Counted from the stretch's first letter, positions 8,671 through 21,271 are shown. The stretch: DNA of 64,000 nucleotides from an uncultured Planctomycetaceae bacterium (GCA_963813715.1 CAWFAK010000005.1:128001-192000); one strand, 5' to 3'. The notes: generated by a model not told the origin, from the letters alone. Numbers and translations: made by a program.

Positions 8671-11600
8671 TTACTGCCGCTCGCGGTCGGGCGATTGCTT
8701 CACTTTGGCAGCGCCGGAGCGATGGCCCGAGTCGCGCGACTTTTTGCTCGAGCTTGCGGTGCCCGAACCCGCCGTGCCCGATCCTGCCGCCGGGCGCGTG
8801 GCCGGCCGTTCGATCCAGAATCGCTTCCGCTCGAACGGATACGTGGGCAGCACCATGCGGCGGCAACCCGCATCGGCGTAAACGCTCTCCCAATCGACAT
8901 GCAATCCGGCCTGATACAGCTCGGCGAGGGATTGAACGAACGCGAGACGCTCATCGGTCCCCGAGCCCAAGCTTGCCAGCCAGCAGCCCGCCGACTGGAA
9001 TCGCGAATCGTCGCGGAACAATCGCCGCGTCAGCTCGAGCAACGTGCCCCCGGGACCCACCTCGAGGAAGCAATCGCAGGCTTCGGCCAGCGTGCGGGCG
9101 CCTTCGGCAAAGCGGACCGGCTCGAGCAGCTGTCGACACCAATAGTCGGCCGTCGCAATTTCCGCCCCGGCGGGCCGCCCGGTTAGGTTAGACAAGAGCA
9201 GCGTTTGTGGCGGCGAAAGCGAAATCGATTCGACGACCTTGCGGAACTCAATGAAAGCCGGGTCGTCGGCCGACAGGTTGGACCGGCCGGCCAGCGGCAA
9301 TTTGCACGCGGCGATTCGCCGAGAGGTGAGTTCGCGAGCAAAGCGGCAGAGCGCCTCGGCCTCGCCCGCGACCACGACCTGATCGGGACCGTTGATCGCG
9401 GCGAGCGAGATGCCCGGCACGATCGGCAGCAATTCGCGAATCCTGGCTTCGTCCGCGCGAACAGCCAGCAGACCCTCGCGTCGTGTCGTCTCACGTTCGA
9501 GCTTCGCGCGGGCGGCGACCAGACACAGCCCGTCTTCGAGACTGAAGACGCCCGCCACCGCGGCCGCCGCGTACTCGCCCGCGCCGTGGCCGATCAGGGC
9601 CGCCGGTGCGACGCCCCACTCTCGCCACATCTGGGCCAACGCGTATTCGATCGCGAAGAGCAGGGGCTCGGCACTTTCGGGCCGGCTCGCCAGCGGAGCC
9701 GTCTCCTCGAAGAGGGGAGCCAGCAGCGGTTGCGGCAGATCGTTGGCCAACAACTCGGCACAACGATCGAGCGTTTGGCGGAAGCGCGGCTCTGTTTCAT
9801 ACAGCCGGCGGGCCCGTTCGAGCGACTGCGTGCCGACGCCGGGAAACAGAAAGCCGACGCGCGTGCGCGACACGTGCTTCGCCCCGTTCTCGCTGCCGTT
9901 CTTGGCCGCCGAGAGCGCGGCCACGAGTGCGTTGCGGAGCTCGGCCACACTCGAACCGACCGCCGCGAACCGCTCGCCAAAGTGTGCTCGGCCAACGGCC
10001 GCCGTAAAACAAATATCCGCGAGCGAGGAATCGTCCGCGTGTTCAAGCGCATCGCGATAGCGGCCGATCAAGGCCCGCAGCGCCGTGTGACTTCGTGCCG
10101 AGATCGGCAGCACGTGCGGCGTCCCGCCCGGCCGTTGTTGGGTCTTTAGCGACGGAGCCTCTTCGAGGATCACATGCGCGTTCGTGCCGCCGATGCCCAG
10201 CGAATTGACGCCGGCCCGCAACGGCTCTTCGCCGCGCCGCCAGTCCGCCAGATGCTTGTTGACGAAGAACGGGCTGTTGGCAAAGTCGATCCGCGGATTG
10301 GGCGTGTTGAAATGCAGCGTGGGTGGGATCTGCCGATGATAAATCGCCAAGGCCGCCTTGATGAAACCGGCGACGCCCGACGCGATCTGCAAGTGGCCCA
10401 CGTTGGTCTTCACCGAGCCGACCGCACAAAATTCCTTCTCGCCCGTGTGCTCGCGAAACGCCTGCGTGATGGCGCCCAGTTCGATGGGATCGCCCAGCAC
10501 GGTGCCGGTGCCATGCGCTTCGACGAAGCCGATCGTGCGGGGATCGACGCCCGAGCGGGCCAGCGCGTCGCCGACGACGTTCGCCATGCCTTCCTGGCTG
10601 GGGGCCAGATAGCCAACCTTGCCCGAGCCGTCGTTGTTCATCGCCGAACCCTTGATGACCGCAAAAATGTGGTCACCGTCGGCGATCGCTTCGTCGAGCC
10701 GTTTGAGCAGCACCATGCCGGCCCCGTTTCCGAAGACGGTCCCTTGGGCCCGCGCATCGAAAGCGCGGCAATGGCCGTCGGGCGAAACAATCATGTCGTC
10801 GAGGTAGAGGTAGCCGGCTTCCTGCGGCACCTTGATCGACACGCCGCCCGCGAGCGCCATGTCGCACTCACCGTAGCGGACGGACTGCGCCGCCATGTGG
10901 ATGGCAACCAGGGTCGTCGAGCAGGCGGTCTGCACGTTGATGCTGGGGCCGCGGAGGTTGAGCTTGTAGGAGATGCGGGTCGGCAGGTAGTCCTTGTCGT
11001 TGGCCACCATCACCTTGAACCCGCCCATCGAGTCGAGCGTGAAGATCTCCGACGGATCCTGCGGCGACTGGAAGGCCTGCGCGGGGCACAGATTGTTGAC
11101 CAGGTAGGTGTTCATCACCGCGCCGGCATAGACGCCGACCGAGCCGGCATACGCGTGCGGGTTGTAGCCGGCGACCTCGAACGTCTCCCACGCACACTCC
11201 AACATCACCCGCTGTTGCGGGTCCATGAGCGCGGCGTCGCGGGCGCTGAATACTGAAGAACTTCGCGTCGAACCACTCGATGTCGGGCAGGACAGGCGCA
11301 ACCTTCACGTAGTCGGGATTGGCCAGCAGGCTGGGATCGACGCCGGCGGCCAACGCTTCTTCGTCGGAGAAGAACTGCATCGACTCGACGCCGTCGCACA
11401 GGTTCTGCCAGAACTGCTGGAAGTTGCCCGCGCCGGGAAGCGGCAGGCCATGCCGATCACGGCGACGTCGCCCGCAGGGGCGACATTCGTGCGTGCGGCC
11501 TTGCGCCGACGGGCCGCAGTCCGTTCATCCGCCGGCGACCCCGCGTTGGACTTCGCCTGCCGGCTGAGGTAACCCGAGAGCGACTCGATCGTCGGATAGT

Positions 11601-13833
11601 TGAACATCTCGACCAGCGAGATCTGCGGGCCGAAGCGGTCTTGCAGCTTCACGTGCATCCGCGTCAACAGCAGCGAGTCGCCGCCCAGGTCGAACAAGTT
11701 GTCGCGGACGTCGATCTGCTCGAGGGACAGCGCCTCTTTCCAGATCTCGGCGAGCTGCTTTTCGATTTCGTTCTGCGGCAGTTGCGGCTGGGCATGTGCG
11801 GCACGAGCGTCGTCGGGCTGCCGCTGCAGGCGACCGACGGCGGCCAGCACGGCGGCAAACTCGCCGGCGGCGAACCGGCGTGCCAGTTCCATGCGTTGAA
11901 TCTTGCCGATCGCCGTCTTGGGGATCGCCTCTTTCGCGACAGGGAGCAAGAAATCGGGTCGCACGCCGGTCTGGCGGACGAGTCGTTGCTGGATCTCACG
12001 CAACAGCTCGCTCAGCGGCGTTTCTTCATCGGTCGCCGTGTGGAAGAAGACGGCCAATTCCTCGCGGTCGCTGCCGGGGCGACGCACCGCGCAAGCCGCG
12101 GTGAATGAAGGTTCGACGCCGGGCACGCCGCCGACCGTCTCTTCCAACTCGCTGCAGGCGTAATTGACGCCGCGAACGATGATGCTTTCCTTCGCCCGCC
12201 CCGTGATCACCAGTTCGCCGTCGGCCAGAAGTCCCAGGTCGCCGGTTTCAAACCAGCCGTCCGCGTGAAAGACGCGGTTGGCTTCCGGGTTGTGAAAATA
12301 GCCCGGCGTGACGGCCGTGCCGCAAACCTGCAAATGGCCGATCGTCGCTTCCGGAACGACCTGCTGCTCGTCGTCGACGATCCGCAGGCCGACGCCGGGA
12401 ATCGGCGGCCCCAGGCTGGCGAAGGTGCCGGCGCTCTCGACTTCTGACTTGGACGAACCCGCGGAGGGCGCCGGCGCGCCGGACCGCTGCACCGAGAGAA
12501 ACTTCAGCGGCCGATCGTGCCGCACGACTTGATACGTAATGCCCGAGCCTGTTTCCGCCATGCCGAACGCCGGCCGAATCGCGGTCGCGGGAAGTCCATA
12601 AGGCGCGAGCTCTTTCAAGAAGGGCTCGGTCACGGTTTGCGAAACCGATTCGCCGGCCGTCAACATTCCGTCGACGCACGACAGGTCCCACGTCGGCGCG
12701 GGCGAGTTACCCGGCCGCGCGGTGAGTGAGCTCGTCACGAGCGAATACGCAAAGTTGGGCGCCCAGGTGTGGGTGACCCGATATTTGTCGATCAGGTCGA
12801 GCCAGTGCAGCGGCCGGGCGATCACACTTTCCTTTTCGGCATACACCATCCGACAGCCAAGCAGCACGCAGCGGAGGTGCCAGTCCGAAATGCTGCCAAT
12901 GTGATCGAAGGGCAACCAGTTGAGGACGACGTCCTCAGCCGTGTGACCGCACAACAGATTCGCGCCGTGGGCACGCTGAATGATGTTGGCGTGCGTCAGC
13001 ATGATGCACTTGGGTACACCCGTGCTGCCGGACGTGAGGCTGAAGAACGCCGTGTCTTCGGGGCGAGCTGCAAACGTATCGTTCGCGGGAGCCGACGTGA
13101 GCAGGCTCGCAATGTCCGTCGTGCGGACCGATTCGACATCGAGCCTTCCGGCCAATGAGCGGACCGGTTCGAGCAAGTTGCTCTTCGTGATCAAGAGCGG
13201 ACCATCAAGCAGTCGCCAGACCTTGCAAAGCTGCTCGAGGCCTCGGTTTTCTCCGGTGAACGTGGGAGGAATTTGCGCGATGGCCGGTCGAATTCCACCG
13301 AGCAGACAACCCCAGAACGCGGGCAGTACATCGGCACTGCGATCGAGCAACAAGAGTGCGCTGTCACCCGGCTTGAGTCCCAACTTTGCGAGACCACCGC
13401 AGACGGCCGAGGCTTCGCCGAGCAGGTCCCCGAAGTTTTGCCATTTTTCGCTCCCATCCGCGCGGACATGCACGAGGCTCTGGGCCGAGTCGTTTTGCGC
13501 CGTGCGCCGCAGTGCATCGGGCAGCGTTTGCGGGAATTCCGCGAGACCTGGCAGAGCGACCGCCGGGCAGTGCGCAAGAGCGGGAGAGGGGGCAGGAGCA
13601 TCGCTCATTGCCGCGTCCGGCGTTGTAGACAGTGAGGTCACAATCCGCACGTCAACTTGCTCGGCCAGATTGGCTGCACGTTCATTCAGCAGGCCACGCA
13701 GATCGTCCACCGACCGATCGGCTTCGACGACGCAGCGGACCGTCCAGCGCCCGTCCGATCCGGGGAGCACTTCAAATGCGCGGATCCACGCAGCTGAGGC
13801 GAACAGAGAGAGCAATGTCGCCGATGGATCCAT
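8671..13833 (-). CDS. Type I PKS: fatty acyl-AMP ligase-like A domain + ACP + KS + degenerate AT (frameshifts near 11440 and 11250)
   Basis: A domain: TSGSTGVPK, FGMAET, TGDLG, GRAKE, PKTAIGKIQR. ACP: LGGDSL. KS triad: TACS, EAHGTGT, NVGHL. AT: GHGAGEY. Post-AT linker: LPTYPFERKRFW. The start could be 13833 or 13920. Confidence 0.85.
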
Positions 13834-14401
13834 AAGCCCGCAATCTCGCGCGACGATTCCGTGCCGGGCAAACTGGTTCGACGCCGAACCCCTGGTCCCA
13901 AGAGTGGCGCAACAAACCATTTCCGCGAGGCATTTTTGATGCCGCGGTTGCCCAGACAGTGAATCGCTTCGTGTTGTTGGAGTTGATGGCCTGACGGTCA
14001 GCCCGGATTCTTAAAGGTCGCGTCATCCGGGACAACGGCTGACTGCGCGTGCAGTCGATGCGGGCTCTGCGACGGGCCTGTTCGACCGCGAACGCCGGTC
14101 AGCGCTCCCAGCTTCGCTCACCTTCGACTGCGGTCCAAAAGTCAGTAGAGAGCCACTGTTATGTTGCGCAAGGCAAAAGTCAAGAACTGAGGCCTAAAAC
14201 CCCCAGATCAAACTTGGACCGTCGCCCGCCGGATCGACGAATCGTTGTGATCGTTTAAGAGTCGCGCCTGACCCAGCAGCTCGTTTGGCCGCGGTGCGGG
14301 CGCCAAAATTAAATGCGGTTTAGAGAACCCAAAGTCTCGCGCGTCTTCGGCAGGGCCGTCGCGACGAATTGAGATCTCCGCGGCCGCTGGCTCGGCAACA
14401 G

Positions 14402-17400
14402 TCAGGTCGCGGGACCCTTGGGGCCGTAGCCTTTGCGCCGTTTGCCTTCGGCCTGCCGTTGTGCGTCGGCGAGGGCGGCGGCCCGATCGGCGAACGCTTT
14501 CGTCACGCCCTGGCCGCGCGAGCCGATGCGACCGAAGCGCACCGTTTGCTCCGACCCGTTCACGGAGATTTCCCAGAACTTCGAGGAGCCGCCCCCCACG
14601 AATTCGAGATATTCTGTCCAGCGGTCGGTGGACTCCTCTGCCGGAGCCGCGGGCGGCTGCGGATGTGCTGTCGGGTCCAACCTCGGGGGGCGGATCGGGA
14701 GGCGGATTGTGGGTCGGACCAGGCAGCGGATCAGGCGGCACGAGTTCGCCCTCGTCGACCGGCTCGTCCAACTCTTCACCCGCCAGCAGTCGTTCGATTC
14801 GCGCCACCACACCGGCCCGATCTTGATACCAGTCGCGGGCCAGCACGACGTAAGTTCGCCAGCCGAACGCGGTGAGTAAGTCGGGCTTGAGCAGCTCGCG
14901 TTCGATCAAGTCCCGCTGGGCGTACCAGTCCGCCGTGTCGACCAGAATGCCCAGCCGATACCCGCGGTCGCCGGCTCGCGAAACGGCCAGGTCGCAGCGG
15001 AAGTGCGATTGGCCGACCGACCGATCGACGCGGTACCCACGTTCTTCTAGTGCGCTGGCCAGCTGGCCAACAACGGCGTCGTCGGTCGGCTCGCGCGCGT
15101 CGGTCGCCGTCCGCGCCTGCGAAAGCGTGGCCAGCAGCTGCGAGGCGATCTCGACGTCACCGATCGAGGCCGCTTCAGCATATCGCAAATAGTTCTTGAG
15201 GCAGTTGGCCCCTTCGTTGTAGTCGTTGGTGATGTCGGAGAAGCGGATCGAGCTGACCAGCGCCATCTGGCAGCGGGCCCGCGAAAAGGCGACGTTGAGC
15301 CGCTTGTGACCGCCCGACACGTTGATCGGGCCGAAGTTCATGCGCATCTTGCCGTCGCGGGTCGGGCCGTAGCAGACGCTGAGGATGATGATGTCCCGCT
15401 CGTCCCCCTGGATGTTCTCCAAGTTTTTGACGAGCAGGCCGACGAATTGCTCGTCTTCCTCCCGTTCCGTTTCCAGTTCCAGCCGGCGGGCGAACTCCGG
15501 ATCCTCGTCGGCCAGGCTGGCCAGTGCCGACTCGATCTCCGCTTGCTGGGCCTCCGAGAACGCGATGATGCCGATGCTGCGGCCTTCCTCGCGCTCCAGA
15601 ATCCGCCGCACGAGCCCGGCGATATAGGCGGCCTCCTCCGCGTTGCGGCGGTTTTCGTAAACGCCGTGCTCCAGGAAGTGGAAGCTCACGGCGCGCTCGA
15701 GTAGCTCGTCCGCGTTCTGGGTCGCGTCGTCCGGCGACTCGACGCGGAGCTCGCGGGCGCCGCGCGTCGAAAGCCGCGCGTCGGGGACGGTCAACAGGCG
15801 GCCGTCGTAGAAGGCATGGTTCGAGAAGCTGATCAACGATTCCGACTGGCTGCGGTAGTGCCAGGCCAGCATGCACGCGGGCAAGTTGCGGGCCGCCTGG
15901 TTGAGGAAGCTGTTGCTGTCGACATCGTAGGTCACCAGCTCGCCGTTCTCCTCGAACGTCAGCTCGTCCCCTTCGTCCGGGCGCTGGCTCACGAAGAAGT
16001 TCGTGGGAGGGAGCTGCATCTCGTCGCCGACGACGATCGCCTGCCGCGCGCGAAAGATCGACGGCACGGCCTCCTCCAGCGTGATCTGGCTCGCTTCGTC
16101 GAAGATCACCACGTCGAAGGTGTCGGCATTGAGCGGCAGCGTGTCGGACACGCTGAGCGGACTCATCAGCCAGACGGGCTTCAAATCGCGGATGACGGCC
16201 CCCGAGTCGCCCGACATCAGGTCGCGGATCGACTTGTAGCGCATGGTCTTGGCGAATTCGTGTTCCAGCTCGCGCCGGCCGCGGTTGTACGTCGGTTTGA
16301 ATGCCTTTTGTGGCACGCTGAGCTGCGCGGCTGGACTGGCGAACGTGTTGACGTGCTCGAGAAACGTCTGGCGAATGATCTCGCGGACGCGCTGGGCATT
16401 TTGTTTCTGCCAGTCGTCGCCCAGACGGCGGAGCCGCGCGAGCTGTCGGCGGCGCGCCGTTCCATCGAAGCGGCCGACGGCCCGGTCGCGCCAGGCGAGC
16501 TGCAGGCTGCGTTCGGCCGTCGCCGCCTCCAGCGCCGGCAGGCTGAGCGGAAAGCTGCGGATCGACTCGGCCAGTTTCGGCGGGAGCGCGCTCAGTTGCG
16601 TCAGGCAATGCAGGTAATCGGGCAGCTCGTCGAGCGAGTCTTCCATCTCGGTGAAAGCGTGTTCCAGCTCGGGCAGGCTCGCGTGCCGATACGCGTCGAG
16701 GAATTCGTCGCAATTGGCCACCAACCGACCCAACTCGTCGGAGAGCGCGGCCACGCCGAGAACCTGCGCGTCGCCACCGGGCGACGTCGTGACGTGCCGG
16801 TGCAGCGAGCGGACGGTCTCGGGCAAGCGATCGATTGTCTGCTCGAGCGACGACAGCTCGGCGGCCAGCTGGTCGAATTCCCCCTCCAAGCCGAAGGCGT
16901 GACAAGTCGCCCGGGCCAGTTCGTCGCGGCGGGCGACGGCCTGATGCTCTTCGCGCAGCTGGTCGAGGATGCGGACCCAGGAAGGGCGGACTTTGTGCTG
17001 CGAGAAGTCGTAGGCCCGATGGAGCACGCCGCGGAGCCGCCACCAGGCCGGCTGGAGGAAGGCAAACATCCGCCCGTCGAATTGGCGGGCTTGGGCGAGG
17101 GCCGTCTCGACGTCGTCGGGCGACAGTTTTTCCCGCCAGGCCTGCGTCGCCTCCCGCTTCTTGGCGATCTCCTGGTCGCCCTGTCGAATCTTTTTTGTCT
17201 CGGCTTGCCAGCGCTGGGCTGCCTCGCTCGAGGGATTCAGAATCGACATCGCCTGCGCGGGCGAGAAAGGCTGCCTGCCGCGCGTAGGCGACGGCCTGGC
17301 ACAAGTTGCCCCAGATCATCGAACGAGCCGCCCGGCAGCGCGAGCCGCTCCAGGTCGGCCTGCAATCGGCGGAGCTCGGCGCCGCTCTGTGTCAGGCAGC

Positions 17401-20034
17401 GGCTGACCAAGTCCAACGGACGCTCGGCTTCGACAACCTTGCCGCTCAAGAGGTGCAGCGGATGATGAGCCAGGATGCCGTCGGCCTGCACGTCGCCGAC
17501 GGTTTCGCCCAGCTCGGTCAGTTGCCCGCGGTGGCGGTGCCAGTCGGCGTAAAACGGGATTCGCTCCCACTCCAGCGGCGACAGGTCGGGCGCCTGGTCG
17601 GCCAGGCGGATTCGCCGATCGAGCGTCGCCCGCAGCGGCCACGCAGCACGTGTCGGGAGCGCTTCGCATGGCGGCATCGAACTGCTCGAGCGGCTGCAGC
17701 TCCTTCTCGAACTGGCCGACGAGACGCCCGCGGCGCGCCGCCGCCTCGTCGCGCTTTTTGTCGGCGGCGGCCAGGTGCGACTCGTACGTCGCCTTGAGAT
17801 CCATCACGAACTCTTTCTTGTCGGCCTGCGAGTCGTGAATCAGGCAGCAGAGTTCGTGCAGGCCGCGCTGCTTGAGCCGATGATAGACGACGTCGATCGC
17901 CGCCCGCTTCTCGCACACAAAGAGCACGCGTTTGCCGCGGACGACGAAGTCCGCAATCAGATTCGTGATCGTCTGCGATTTCCCGGTTCCCGGCGGCCCC
18001 TGGATGATGTAGCTCGCGCCGCTGCGAGCCAGGGCGATGGCGTGGGTCTGCGTCGGGTCGCAGGAGACAACGTGAAACCGCTCGGCCAGCGGCAGCGTTT
18101 CCGTCGTGGCCGGCCGCACCTCGCGCGGCGCGATGGCGAACGTCGCCTCGAACGCCGGATTCACCGACGTGTCGTCCGCCAACTCGCCGTAATCGCGAAC
18201 CAGCGACATGCGACGATATCGCAAGTTCGACAGTGTCACGGAGCAGAGATCGAACTCCCAGTTGTACGGGTTGTCGTCCGCCTGCTTGCGGACCTGGTAG
18301 AACTTGCGCTCGGCTTCGGCGACGGGCGGTCCGTCTGAGGCGGCCGCCGCTGGCTGGCTCTTCCGCGGCTGGGTCTTCCGCACGTCGACCGGCGGCGGAT
18401 CGGTTGTCTGCCCGTCCTGCGGCTCCGCCTCGTCCTTTAACTCGACCATATATTGAGGCGGCGGCGGACCCGTCGACACGATCTGCTCGAGACGCGTTTT
18501 GGCGGGGCGGACAAACTCTTTGAAGATCCGCACGCCCAGCGGATGGTAGTTCGACGAGTCGTAGCTGTAGTCGAGGTCCAGAAACGAGCGGATGCCGCGG
18601 CCGGACAGCCGGGCGTGCCGGCGAAACTGGTCGAGCCGCCGCCGGGCCTTCTCGTGGATCAAATCAATCCGCGGCCGGTCGACCTTCGTCAGCGTCACCG
18701 ACGGATCGCCCGCCTGAATCTGCGCGTTGAGGTCGGCGTGAAACGCGGCGATGCCCTCGGGCGTGGGGTCGATCGAAACGGGCAGATCGATGTCGTACCA
18801 CTGCTTGAAGAGGTGCCGCACCACCGGGTTCACTTCGGCCTGCGTTTCAAGAGCGGTGAGCAAGTAGCGATCGTGAATCCCCTTTTTCACCGCGAGCCTC
18901 ACCGGCAGCATCAACAGCGGCGACTCGTAGCGGCCGGGGGGCTTGTCCTTGAGATTGGCCCACCGCAGGAAACAAATCACCAACCGCAATTGGGCGAAGC
19001 CGTATTCGCGCTCGTCGCGGGCGGCCTCGGCCCGGATGCGGTCGAGCGTGCCCGGCAGGTACACGGCCTCGCGAAAGTTCAGATACTTGTTGAGCGAGAC
19101 GGCCTGGCCGCTGAGGACATCGCGGCAGAAGCGACCGTTCCAGGTGACCAGCTGATCCTCGCGGACATTGCGGTAGTCGAACATCAGCGGGATCGAGGCG
19201 TGCGTCAGGTTGACCGACTGCATCGTCGACTGGAACTCGAGCAGCCGATTGCGGCGCGAGACCTCGAACAGCCGCTCCCGCAACTTGTCGAGAATGATCC
19301 GTCGCTTGGCGGGCGGCGCCGCGCCGCCAAAACCGCGATTGCTGGCGAGATCCGTCTCAAAGTCGACTTCCTGATCGCGATAGTTCTCGAGCGCGTGCAG
19401 CACGCTCCGCAGATCCTGCGGCCGCTGGTGGCGATCGAGTTCGGTCATCGCCCGGATGACCTTCGCCAGCACGGGATGCAGTCCGGGCGTCAATTCGAAC
19501 AGGTTGCCGCGACGAGCGACGAACCGCTCGGTGGTCCGTCGGGATCGGTGAGGTCCAGGCTGCAGGCCAGGCTGGCCAGAATCAGCCCCAAGCTGAAGAC
19601 GTCGGTGAGCGGGTCGTGATGCCCCAGCCGATGTTCCCAGCAGACGTAGCCACGGAGATAGGCGGGTCGCTCGAGTTCGGCGCCGGGCTCGCCGGCCGCC
19701 TTCGATTGGACTTCGTCGACCCCCGTGTCGAGCTGGCGGACGACGGTCGCCCGGTTGACGACCTCGACCCCCTTGGCCTCCGGCTTGAGCAGGCGGCGGA
19801 CGCGCGACAGCTTGCTCTGAGGCGGACAGCGATCCTGCTCAGCCGAAGCCGATCCGCCCGCCATCGACCTGGAGCGCGCTCAGCCCCTCGAGCGGCGCAC
19901 ATCCCAGCCTCGTGCGCAGCGATCACCTGACGTACAAGCGGCAGAAACGCCGCCAGCGCGTCTTCGGTTGTGAAGCCGCCGTGTTCGATGCGCTCGTGGA
20001 GAAATTCGTGAAACGACGTCAGTCGGCTGGACAT
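14402..20034 (-). CDS. Large multidomain SF1 helicase: pseudokinase C-lobe / DUF4011-like / UPF1-DNA2-type helicase / Vsr-MTES_1575-like / WGR (rejoined across about 6 frameshifts)
   Basis: Kinase remnants: DVFSLG and MTELDRHQRP. DUF4011-like: LFEVSRRNRLLEF, SPLLMLPV. Walker A: QGPPGTGKSQT. Helicase motifs: IFDEASQ, GDEMQLPP, HYRS, IQGDERD, RLNVAFSRAR. Nuclease-like: VGQSHFRCDLAV..GW. WGR: SSKFWEI..FGRIG..KRRKGY. Confidence 0.85.
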
Positions 20035-21271
20035 CGTCCGGATGTCGTTCGGCCTCGGCCACGATCGTGGCGGCGTTTTTGCGAACGGCTTCAAATTGTC
20101 GTTTGGTCATTCGCAGTTCCTTCCCCGCGATGGCGACCAGGCGATCCTCAATTTCGAGCCGGCGCGCCAGCAAGAGGGCGGCGGCGAACGGGGCCTCTTC
20201 CAGGTCGGCATCCGACGTGGCGAAATCCAGCAGCACGTAGCAGAAGTAATCCCGCAGCGGCTCGTCGCCGGCGGCGATGGCCTGCGTCAGCTCGTCGAGA
20301 TTTCCGTCGCGGCATTCGGTCGCATCGAAGTCTTCAAAAAACTGTTTGGCGTGGGCCAGGATCGTGTCTGTCTGGATCCAGGCGGGCGCGAGAAAGTGCT
20401 CGAGCAGCGCCCGCGTCGACTGGGCGACTCGCTTTTGCCGCAACAGGTCGAGCGTGCCGATGGCCAGCGGCCCTTCGATGAGCGTTTCCAGCGCCGCATC
20501 GACGCTCTTGGGATCGAGCGACCAGAGCTGCAGAGCCCGCGCGCGAATGAACATTTCCGGATGCGTGACGCCTTCGCTCTTGGTCGCCCCGCGCCGCAGC
20601 ACCTCTTCGGCCTGCTTGAGGTAGGCGTCGGCACTCGCCTGCCGCAGGCCAGTTTCCATTTTCACCTGCATCGACACGCAGGCCGCCAGATCGCCGGTCA
20701 TCGCCAGCGTCAGGCGGTCGCAGAACAGCTCGGTGTAGAGCTTGAAGTGCTTCCACGTCCGCTCGTGCGCGGCCGATGCGGCCCGGTCGCCCAGCATGGC
20801 CGCCAACACCTGTTCGACGATCAGATACGCGCCGTCCTCGATCGAGAACAACCAATGGTGCGCGATCTCGTGCCCGAACAGCGCGATCAACTCCGCTTCG
20901 GTCAGCGTCTCCTGCACGGGGCCGTGCAGCACGACGTGCACTTCGCCCGGCAGCCACGCCAGCGACGCATTGAGCCCCTTGGCGTTTTGCGCCTGGTAGA
21001 GCGTGATGGACGTATCGTGGCCGAGGCGGTCGGCCGCCGCCTTCGCCGCCCGGTACAAGTCAGCCGAGGTGGCCGGCTCGAGCCGATAGGTCGACTTGAG
21101 CAGTTCGTGTCGCACGGCCTCGGCGTACTCGGTCCGCACTTTCTGCGAGGCGATCCAATTCCAGATTTCCTGCTCGTCCGTGCGAAGAAATTCGAGCAAC
21201 TCGCGGTGATAGCGCGTCGGTTCGACGACCGGGCGACCCGCGTCTACCGAGGTCGTGAGGGAGGTCGACAT
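19880..21271 (-). CDS. M48 (HtpX/Ste24-like) zinc metalloprotease; the true stop may lie near 20020-20040
   Basis: LNAS, GHEIAH zinc motif, third ligand in TELFCDR, and THP..R motif. No signal peptide. Its 3' end overlaps the helicase start at 20034. Confidence 0.85.
   Translation of the reverse strand: MSTSLTTSVDAGRPVVEPTRYHRELLEFLRTDEQEIWNWIASQKVRTEYAEAVRHELLKSTYRLEPATSADLYRAAKAAADRLGHDTSITLYQAQNAKGLNASLAWLPGEVHVVLHGPVQETLTEAELIALFGHEIAHHWLFSIEDGAYLIVEQVLAAMLGDRAASAAHERTWKHFKLYTELFCDRLTLAMTGDLAACVSMQVKMETGLRQASADAYLKQAEEVLRRGATKSEGVTHPEMFIRARALQLWSLDPKSVDAALETLIEGPLAIGTLDLLRQKRVAQSTRALLEHFLAPAWIQTDTILAHAKQFFEDFDATECRDGNLDELTQAIAAGDEPLRDYFCYVLLDFATSDADLEEAPFAAALLLARRLEIEDRLVAIAGKELRMTKRQFEAVRKNAATIVAEAERHPDDVQPTDVVSRISPRAHRTRRLHNRRRAGGVSAACTSGDRCARGWDVRRSRG

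Follow-up and report, generated by a model that had tools for sequence, protein, structure and literature searches.

The DNA analysed here (the window, 64,000 nucleotides in all) derives from an uncultured Planctomycetaceae bacterium (GCA_963813715.1 CAWFAK010000005.1:128001-192000) and carries, at positions 14,402 to 21,271, a gene for a soluble M48-type zinc metalloprotease followed directly by a gene for a helicase-nuclease of about 1,900 residues. The two genes form a nearly obligatory, co-inherited two-gene accessory module that occurs across five or more phylum-level groups, namely at least four phyla and the Betaproteobacteria, including cultured Bremerella and Blastopirellula. Judged by profile comparison, the helicase-nuclease is a relative of ProA (Prometheus), PDC-S37 and Hhe that scores below the curated cut-offs of ProA and Hhe. 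Because of this family resemblance to ProA and Hhe, and because of a patchy, horizontally spread distribution, we give a probability of about 0.5 to the reading that the pair is a protease-regulated helicase-nuclease directed against phages or mobile DNA, a variant of known defence helicase-nucleases.

A co-inherited protease and helicase-nuclease pair

A scan of one genome per species returned 294 relatives of the protease, and the best 80 of these loci were examined. By record title they belonged to Planctomycetota (48), Verrucomicrobiota (23), Acidobacteriota (5), Lentisphaerae (1) and other groups (3). The helicase gene lay directly downstream on the same strand in 77 of the 80, with the match beginning at residue 1-7 of the helicase. 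Two of the three unpaired loci were at contig ends, and the third (L050) had 8 kb of room and no helicase. Gaps between the two genes were typically 0-60 nt, and an overlap of 4 nt was observed in Bremerella and in Ralstonia. An earlier note on this DNA, made from the sequence alone, had described two tightly coupled, co-directional genes, and that description was upheld; both genes are on the minus strand of the window, in a region of 65% G+C.

When 401 Planctomycetota genomes were sampled evenly, the N-terminal head that distinguishes these helicases (described below) was detected in 11 of them and a strong match to the protease in 10, and the two were adjacent in all 10; the contig of the eleventh head-bearing genome ended inside the helicase gene. 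Five weak protease paralogues in the sample came from genomes in which no head was found, and at the one of these loci that was retrieved (G048) the 9-kb stretch contained no helicase. Pairwise identities of protease and head were correlated (r = 0.94, 1,176 pairs), a value inflated by kinship. Among the other genomes of the same genus, 4 of 11 carried the pair, or 5 of 12 when the window's own genome was counted. Among 28 Ralstonia megaplasmid records with a common adjacent flank, 14 also had the full pair. The Ralstonia protease showed 37.5% identity and the helicase, a 1,833-residue protein annotated as "WGR domain-containing protein", 40% identity over its whole length. Co-conservation of the M48 protease and the helicase across phyla, which the note had raised, was thereby confirmed. 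No third gene was common to more than 5 of 68 loci.

Collinearity with the window extended over 19.5 kb in the closest species. A different species of the genus (G005) carried the two genes by themselves, at 78% DNA identity, with the homologue of one flank lying about 100 kb away, and in a genome without the pair the flanks were not adjacent. This different context agreed with the note's description of a unit set among unrelated genes like an accessory insertion.

Two loci resembled decay of the module: L050, where the protease stood alone, and L071, where the helicase consisted of a 166-residue stub with the kinase-like head.

Properties of the two proteins and their reading frames

The window protease matched Pfam Peptidase_M48 (PF01435) at 21.1 bits, above the gathering cut-off of 20.3, and the orthologue P0003 scored 26.0 bits. 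In an alignment of 50 sequences, comprising the window protein and 49 family members, the complete active site that the note had read from the window (HEIAH, a downstream E and THP) was invariant. The E181-x-x-C-D185 sequence is presumably the E-x-x-[AC]-D motif of M48/HtpX. From the invariant HExxH, E and D, the protease appears to be catalytically active. Residues 171-217 of the Bremerella protease (in its own numbering, covering the equivalent E179 and D183) matched NCBIfam HtpX models (E 3.6e-8); none of the HtpX equivalog cut-offs was reached by the window protease or by the Bremerella orthologue, which scored far below them. Membrane anchoring is a feature of the classic M48 members HtpX and Ste24. 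No transmembrane segment was found in the protease, in which the maximum Kyte-Doolittle mean over 19 residues was 1.21. The ESM Atlas model of the Bremerella protease (pTM 0.84) had M48 clusters of ~400 residues as neighbours (TM 0.83-0.94), partly from Bacteroidota and Pseudomonadota. A SprT-like Pfam match on the Bremerella protease was weak (E 0.0063), and a Blastopirellula homologue was annotated as "SprT-like domain-containing" in one source. The protein also bears a family-specific C-terminal helical region of ~160 residues, and the family comprises at least 1,070 proteins at E<=1e-5, each of ~410 residues. In related strains of three public runs, the C-terminal region contained an 18-nt in-frame insertion (window 20314-20318).

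The helicase-nuclease was shown to be arranged as a kinase C-lobe-like head, a DUF4011 domain, a split superfamily 1 (SF1) helicase, an MTES_1575 nuclease and a WGR domain. In the window, these domains were read from minus-strand open reading frames (ORFs) at 17316-19493 (DUF4011 and the N-part of AAA_11), 14208-17249 (the C-part of AAA_11, AAA_12 and MTES_1575) and 14402-14812 (WGR), and intact orthologues of 1,908 residues from the same genus (P0001) and 1,843 residues from Bremerella cremea kept the identical order. Motif I (QGPPGTGKSQTITNLIA), FDEASQ, VGDxMQLPPT, QGDERD and RLNVxFSRA were at least 95% conserved in 50 full-length members, in which the nuclease Asp positions were also retained. 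The window pieces contained every conserved helicase motif, as the note had claimed for the SF1 set. With motifs I-VI conserved, the helicase appears to be catalytically active.

The WGR domain exceeded its gathering cut-off of 22 bits in the window and in the orthologues, which scored 58.1 and 67.2 bits. Of 50 complete single-frame ORFs, 34 ended in WGR (1,815-1,914 residues), 14, all from Planctomycetota, ended after the nuclease (1,717-1,764 residues), and 2 were truncated, so that WGR was present in 34 of 48 full-length members and missing in 14. The note was right about the terminal WGR domain of the window protein; as the domain is optional in the family, it is not a defining part, although the note had counted it among the additions that suggested a distinct system.

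The head (residues 1 to ~245) had no Pfam match in the intact orthologues, nor any match to a Pfam kinase at E<=0.1. Three weak, independent and concordant lines point to a homologue of the protein-kinase C-lobe. A profile of 50 heads matched 47 PDB sequences at E<=1, of which 45 were protein kinases, weakly and at best with E 0.0026; AMPK alpha2 (the best match), PLK1 and MAPKAPK2/3 were aligned over subdomains IX-XI. An hhalign comparison with two genuine Ser/Thr kinases encoded by flanking genes gave E 5.4e-5 and a probability of 66.6% over 91 columns; W-E-H fell opposite A-P-E, and the invariant D140 and R199 fell opposite the Asp of subdomain IX and the Arg of subdomain XI, respectively. 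The protein-language-model neighbours of the head in the ESM Atlas, among those listed, were all kinase families (score 0.95). The kinase-aligned part covers residues ~123-213 only, from the APE motif to subdomain XI. The head starts at residue 1 and leaves no space for an N-lobe, and the presumed catalytic loop, placed by eye, reads A-H-x-x-G-x-V-A-P-L, with "VAPL" where HRD is expected. Because the N-lobe is absent and HRD is replaced, the head is probably an inactive relic. The pseudokinase N-terminus of the earlier note was therefore kinase-like as stated, although it was not a kinase domain, being probably a C-lobe relic with neither N-lobe nor catalytic residues. In 1.84 billion proteins, the head profile recovered 499 representative clusters, always at the N-terminus; the longer head-bearing proteins listed were 1,640-1,942 residues long, and the many shorter ones were probably contig fragments.

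The helicase gene is not a single frame in the window as assembled. A tblastn search with P0001 yielded 8 collinear pieces, and hence 7 frame changes in 5.6 kb; the note had rejoined about 6 single-base frameshifts. The seven frame changes are assembly errors, not decay. The source genome (7.5 Mb, 18 contigs, 82.6% complete by marker genes) has rpoB split into four neighbouring pieces and rpoC spread over three or more frames (G000:C9:452772-460787, outside the window). Three other few-contig, low-completeness assemblies of the genus had 1, 1 and 7 frame changes elsewhere in the helicase gene, and in a 680-contig assembly of the genus the helicase was one intact open frame of 1,908 residues. 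Independent Illumina-based contigs, 90-99% alike to the window, were obtained from four public runs, three of them soil metagenomes and the fourth a rhizosphere RNA library. Relative to the window, these contigs had two additional nucleotides at 19894, one missing at 19843 and two single-nucleotide deletions at 19529-19539, which correspond to three of the seven frame-change sites. Gaps also occurred in contig pieces covering 16536-17555 and 14383-14734; the support for individual sites consists of the indels among the rows listed, and the site at ~17640-17652 is outside the contig pieces listed. The independent contigs were without the single bases at 20022 and 20024, which explains why the window protease frame as assembled continues stop-free to 19880, and the exact protease stop and helicase start (~20020-20034) are uncertain. 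Contigs of the rhizosphere RNA library covered 30 of 30 bins of the stretch, from which expression is not claimed because DNA carry-over is possible.

That the window copy is a decaying pseudogene with nothing functional, as seven frame changes in 5.6 kb and the absence of the protease stop codon at its expected end might suggest, is highly improbable. This reading was rejected because the same assembly breaks rpoB and rpoC about as often and because the independent contigs show indels at three of the sites. In addition, no in-frame stop occurred within the 8 aligned pieces (the longest of 841 residues), which kept all motifs and 60-82% identity to the orthologue, and the same-genus copy is intact.

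Indel errors occur throughout the source assembly at roughly one per kilobase, and other "frameshifted" genes of this assembly should therefore be presumed intact.

Table. Coordinates of the protease, the helicase-nuclease and their parts in the window, with defence-type ORFs near related loci
Feature	Position	Strand	Basis or remark
Soluble M48-type zinc metalloprotease gene	20020..21271	-	Start 21271 (MSTSLTT...); ~420 residues, ~417 alignable
HEIAH zinc-binding/catalytic motif (H134, E135, H138)	20858..20872	-	Invariant, 50-sequence alignment
E181-x-x-C-D185, probable third zinc ligand	20717..20731	-	E181 and D185 invariant, 50 sequences
THPE motif, then R-A-R-A	20555..20566	-	H237, P238, E239, R243, A244, R245, A246 invariant
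Helicase-nuclease gene, ~1,900 residues	14402..20034	-	ATG at 20034; stop codon 14402-14404; 7 frame changes
Collinear pieces, first four	19894-20034, 19842-19901, 19538-19861, 17652-19559	-	tblastn, intact orthologue P0001
Collinear pieces, last four	17303-17638, 17251-17310, 14736-17258, 14405-14632	-	tblastn, intact orthologue P0001
N-terminal kinase C-lobe-like domain, probably inactive, protease-linked clade only	19325..20034 (approximate)	-	Holds 3 frame changes
DUF4011 domain	18819..19274	-	Pfam PF13195, 42.7 bits
SF1 helicase motif I region (GPPGTGKSQTITNLIA; AAA_11 N-part)	17829..18059	-	AAA_11 at residues 479-555 of ORF 17316-19493
Insertion of ~450 residues between motifs I and II	16131..17828	-	Pfam AAA_11 split; common to ProA/PDC-S37
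Motifs II-VI (FDEASQ, VGDEMQLPPT, QGDERD, RLNVAFSRA)	15249..16130	-	AAA_11 C-part 31.1 bits, AAA_12 68.1 bits
MTES_1575 (Vsr/DUF559-like) endonuclease domain	14790..15062	-	Pfam PF18741, 64.8 bits
C-terminal WGR domain	14414..14614	-	Pfam PF05406, 56.6 bits
Defence-type neighbour ORFs (other loci)	L072:4596-6092 (+), L058:157-738 (-), L071:9848-10441 (+)		

Relation to ProA, PDC-S37, Hhe and Mokosh

The best NCBIfam match of the helicase was NF058533, "anti-phage protein ProA", at 695/688 bits (P0001/P0002), below the cut-off of 1500; the window pieces scored 187 and 477 bits. In the genome scan, protease-linked helicases reached 540-650 bits against this model, compared with 1516-2237 for true ProA. 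The Hhe model NF042953 gave 449/456 bits, below its cut-off of 2000. PADLOC models ranked PDC-S37 highest (684/714 bits), followed by Hhe (310/306) and MkoA (120/125), and the PDC-S37 match (PDLC05009, E 1e-205/1e-214) covered ~71-75% of the profile; this model comes with neither a curated cut-off nor a rule on coverage, and the head and the protease fall outside it. The earlier note had recognised no named system. For the two-gene form this was correct, as no PADLOC or NCBIfam model describes a protease-helicase pair, and no paper on such a pair, or on the name PDC-S37, was found in a literature search that left supplements outside its scope; the helicase itself, however, has the named relatives given above.

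ProA is reported to act in defence as a single protein, as validated by experiment in P. aeruginosa; its four essential domains are laid out as DUF4011, a helicase with an insertion, a nuclease and DUF3320, and it is related to eukaryotic R-loop-acting enzymes (PMC13700489). The helicase of the pair follows the same order, with DUF4011, then an SF1 helicase of the Upf1/DNA2 type whose motifs I and II are separated by a large insertion, and then a nuclease of the MTES_1575 type. It gave one continuous alignment with the ProA profile from the helicase core through the nuclease (positions 583-1731). It differed in that core identity was ~35% and that the DUF3320 tail of ProA was replaced by WGR or by nothing; no DUF3320 was detected in the orthologues at E<=0.1, and the ProA profile was unmatched beyond position ~1739 (its last ~165 positions). 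An M48 gene was directly upstream in 77 of 80 loci here, whereas it was found at none of 10 bona fide ProA loci, where the kinase-like head was likewise absent. The N-terminus of ProA was unrelated to the head (hhalign probability 0.2%).

A tree of the core from motif II to the nuclease (MAFFT and FastTree; 50 protease-linked sequences and 20 others) placed the protease-linked helicases in a group of their own, divided from the remaining 20 by a branch 1.0 substitutions per site long (support 1.0). Their sister group (support 0.984) comprised single-gene helicase-nucleases of ~1,450-1,530 residues (L108-L113) with no head and no conserved neighbour. Since ProA and the sister group are without both, the protease and the kinase relic were probably gained together on this one long branch. 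ProA-like helicases were found in 155 of the 401 Planctomycetota genomes at E<=1e-50, of which 50 were above the ProA cut-off (the sampled loci being L098-L107).

PDC-S37, a single-gene phage defence candidate, was matched over profile positions 254-1350 (P0001) and 217-1382 (P0002) of 1550; it differed in that its profile has ~250 positions before the helicase core, and so is without the head, and in that its last ~170-200 positions were unmatched. Hhe shares DUF4011, the helicase and a Vsr-like nuclease, and the match was mainly to its C-terminal helicase-nuclease half; unlike the pair, Hhe is a single gene without protease, head or WGR. Mokosh MkoA shows that a kinase-type domain can precede an Upf1-like helicase. 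The helicase core matched MkoA positions 778-1097 and 790-1099, and the real Ser/Thr kinases among the flank ORFs matched model positions 7-283 and 5-283. The pair differs from Mokosh in that its head is probably no more than a catalytically dead C-lobe, its helicase has DUF4011 and the MTES_1575 nuclease, and the partner is a protease rather than a PLD nuclease. The regulatory proteases BlaR1/MecR1 (M48/M56 clan) and the DNA-activated metalloproteases SPRTN/Wss1, IrrE and CapP are HExxH zinc proteases that make a site-specific cut upon a signal, and by analogy they make a protease wired to a nucleic-acid sensor plausible. The protease described here differs from them in being soluble, and its sequence membership was limited to Pfam Peptidase_M48 (21-26 bits) and the weak SprT-like match.

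Possible roles of the pair and its genomic context

In the reading that we favour, a cytoplasmic M48-clan zinc protease would work with a Prometheus (ProA)/Hhe-type DUF4011-SF1 helicase-MTES_1575 nuclease whose N-terminus has acquired an inactive kinase C-lobe. The relic may serve as a docking or regulatory surface for the protease, so that the two proteins would form one complex. The helicase-nuclease would sense abnormal nucleic acid, such as invading DNA, an R-loop or, via WGR where present, DNA ends, and sensing would be coupled to site-specific proteolysis. Either the protease might cut the head off the helicase and so release it, or the sensor might free the protease as an effector. The outcome would be defence against phages or other mobile DNA, as with ProA, the nearest tested relative. 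Physical binding, the direction of regulation, the gating by the protease that the note had proposed and the role in defence are all features that we infer. More tentatively, and with the odds rather against it, the M48 protease may be an obligatory subunit of a sensing helicase-nuclease, controlled through the kinase C-lobe as a docking site, pseudosubstrate or bait, such that the sensing of aberrant or foreign nucleic acid becomes a proteolytic switch; this would be a new type of machinery for immunity or surveillance. We know of no Prometheus/Hhe-type system or M48 protease that has been described as a nucleic-acid-triggered proteolytic switch.

Several results weighed against the favoured reading. 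As the curated cut-offs for ProA and Hhe were missed, the function of these proteins cannot be transferred by family membership. Enrichment near defence islands, which the earlier note had proposed to look for, did not emerge, and this weakens the case: only 9 of 216 flank ORFs from 50 loci matched PADLOC at E<=1e-12, five of them generic (kinase, ABC, ankyrin) and about four specific (a DruE fragment, PDC-S24, PDC-S03 and an SNF2 helicase). No integrase or transposase was found among the 82 nearest flank ORFs, which were mostly housekeeping genes and included one HipA-like ORF, and no relatives were found on IMG/VR viral contigs or in INPHARED phage genomes. The occurrence of ProA-like helicases in 155 of 401 genomes is unusual for an accessory defence gene and leaves room for a non-defence role. 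A search for protease-helicase fusions gave two matches (1,310 and 1,766 residues), both incomplete, and the one inspected (P0274) had garbled stretches; these were rejected as probable indel artefacts and lend no Rosetta-stone support, the length range of the search having excluded full fusions (~2,250 residues).

A non-immune module for DNA repair or nucleic-acid surveillance would accommodate some of these results, and we consider it unlikely. A SprT/Wss1/SPRTN-like protease would clear proteins trapped or cross-linked on DNA or RNA, the helicase-nuclease would then unwind and cut at the lesion or R-loop, and WGR, the break-sensing domain of PARPs, would recognise breaks. The SprT-like match and annotation, the housekeeping rather than defence-island flanks, the uvrA-annotated gene after the pair in Ralstonia and the reported kinship of ProA with R-loop-acting enzymes (PMC13700489) are all consistent with such a module. 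The pair, however, is patchily distributed (in the phylum 11 of 401 genomes, in the genus 5 of 12) and varies in context, in which it is unlike core repair genes; WGR is missing in 14 of 48 members, and the uvrA neighbour is not conserved elsewhere. Nor were LexA-type boxes, sought with consensus patterns, found in any of 64 upstream regions for five of the six patterns, the sixth occurring in 2. It is still more improbable that the protease is merely a conserved neighbour, chaperone-like or unrelated, that shares an operon with a helicase-nuclease acting alone like ProA or Hhe. ProA, PDC-S37 and Hhe are single-gene systems, the sister clade is partnerless, and two loci depart from the pairing (L050 with no helicase within 8 kb, L071 with its stub), as a mere neighbour would allow. 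Against this stand near-perfect co-occurrence over at least four phyla plus the Betaproteobacteria, translational coupling, an invariant protease active site and the gain of protease and head together on one long branch.

The excerpts found in a literature search on DUF4011 helicase-nuclease proteins (Hhe, Prometheus) did not cover mechanisms. A clade with a recruited, dedicated protease and a dead kinase domain would offer a natural handle on the regulation of DUF4011 enzymes, with the head-less, partnerless sister clade as a natural comparator, and to our knowledge it would be the first in which an M48-clan protease forms part of a Hhe/Prometheus-type system. If the pair instead acts in repair, it would point to a way in which bacteria clear protein-nucleic acid blocks with a protease and a helicase. 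The module is directly testable, because it consists of two genes only and occurs in the cultured, non-pathogenic Bremerella and Blastopirellula and across at least five phylum-level groups.

A scan of the window for promoters and terminators gave no promoter-like sites and 4 terminator-like sites, compared with 5.9 expected by shuffling. The 8-mer CTTTGACC occurred in 12 of 64 upstream regions (250 nt, L015-L094) and may be a -35-type promoter element of one lineage. Of the defence-type neighbours at other loci listed in the table, one was a full-length match to PDC-S24 (592 bits), another matched PDC-S03 and the third was a piece of DruE at the edge of a contig. In Ralstonia (L097:15886-19149; CP047137.1 1083226-1089063), the pair is followed on the same strand by a 5.8-kb uvrA-annotated gene, which was not seen at other loci. 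In the window, the pair is flanked by a polyketide gene pair (FAAL-PCP/KS-AT) and by ORFs that matched no family. At 8671-13920 on the minus strand, a fatty-acyl-AMP ligase (FAAL)/PCP ORF (AMP-binding and PP-binding) is continued by a KS-AT polyketide synthase ORF; the former closes with what resembles the start of a KS domain and then an out-of-frame tail, so that the two are probably one hybrid gene split by an assembly error.

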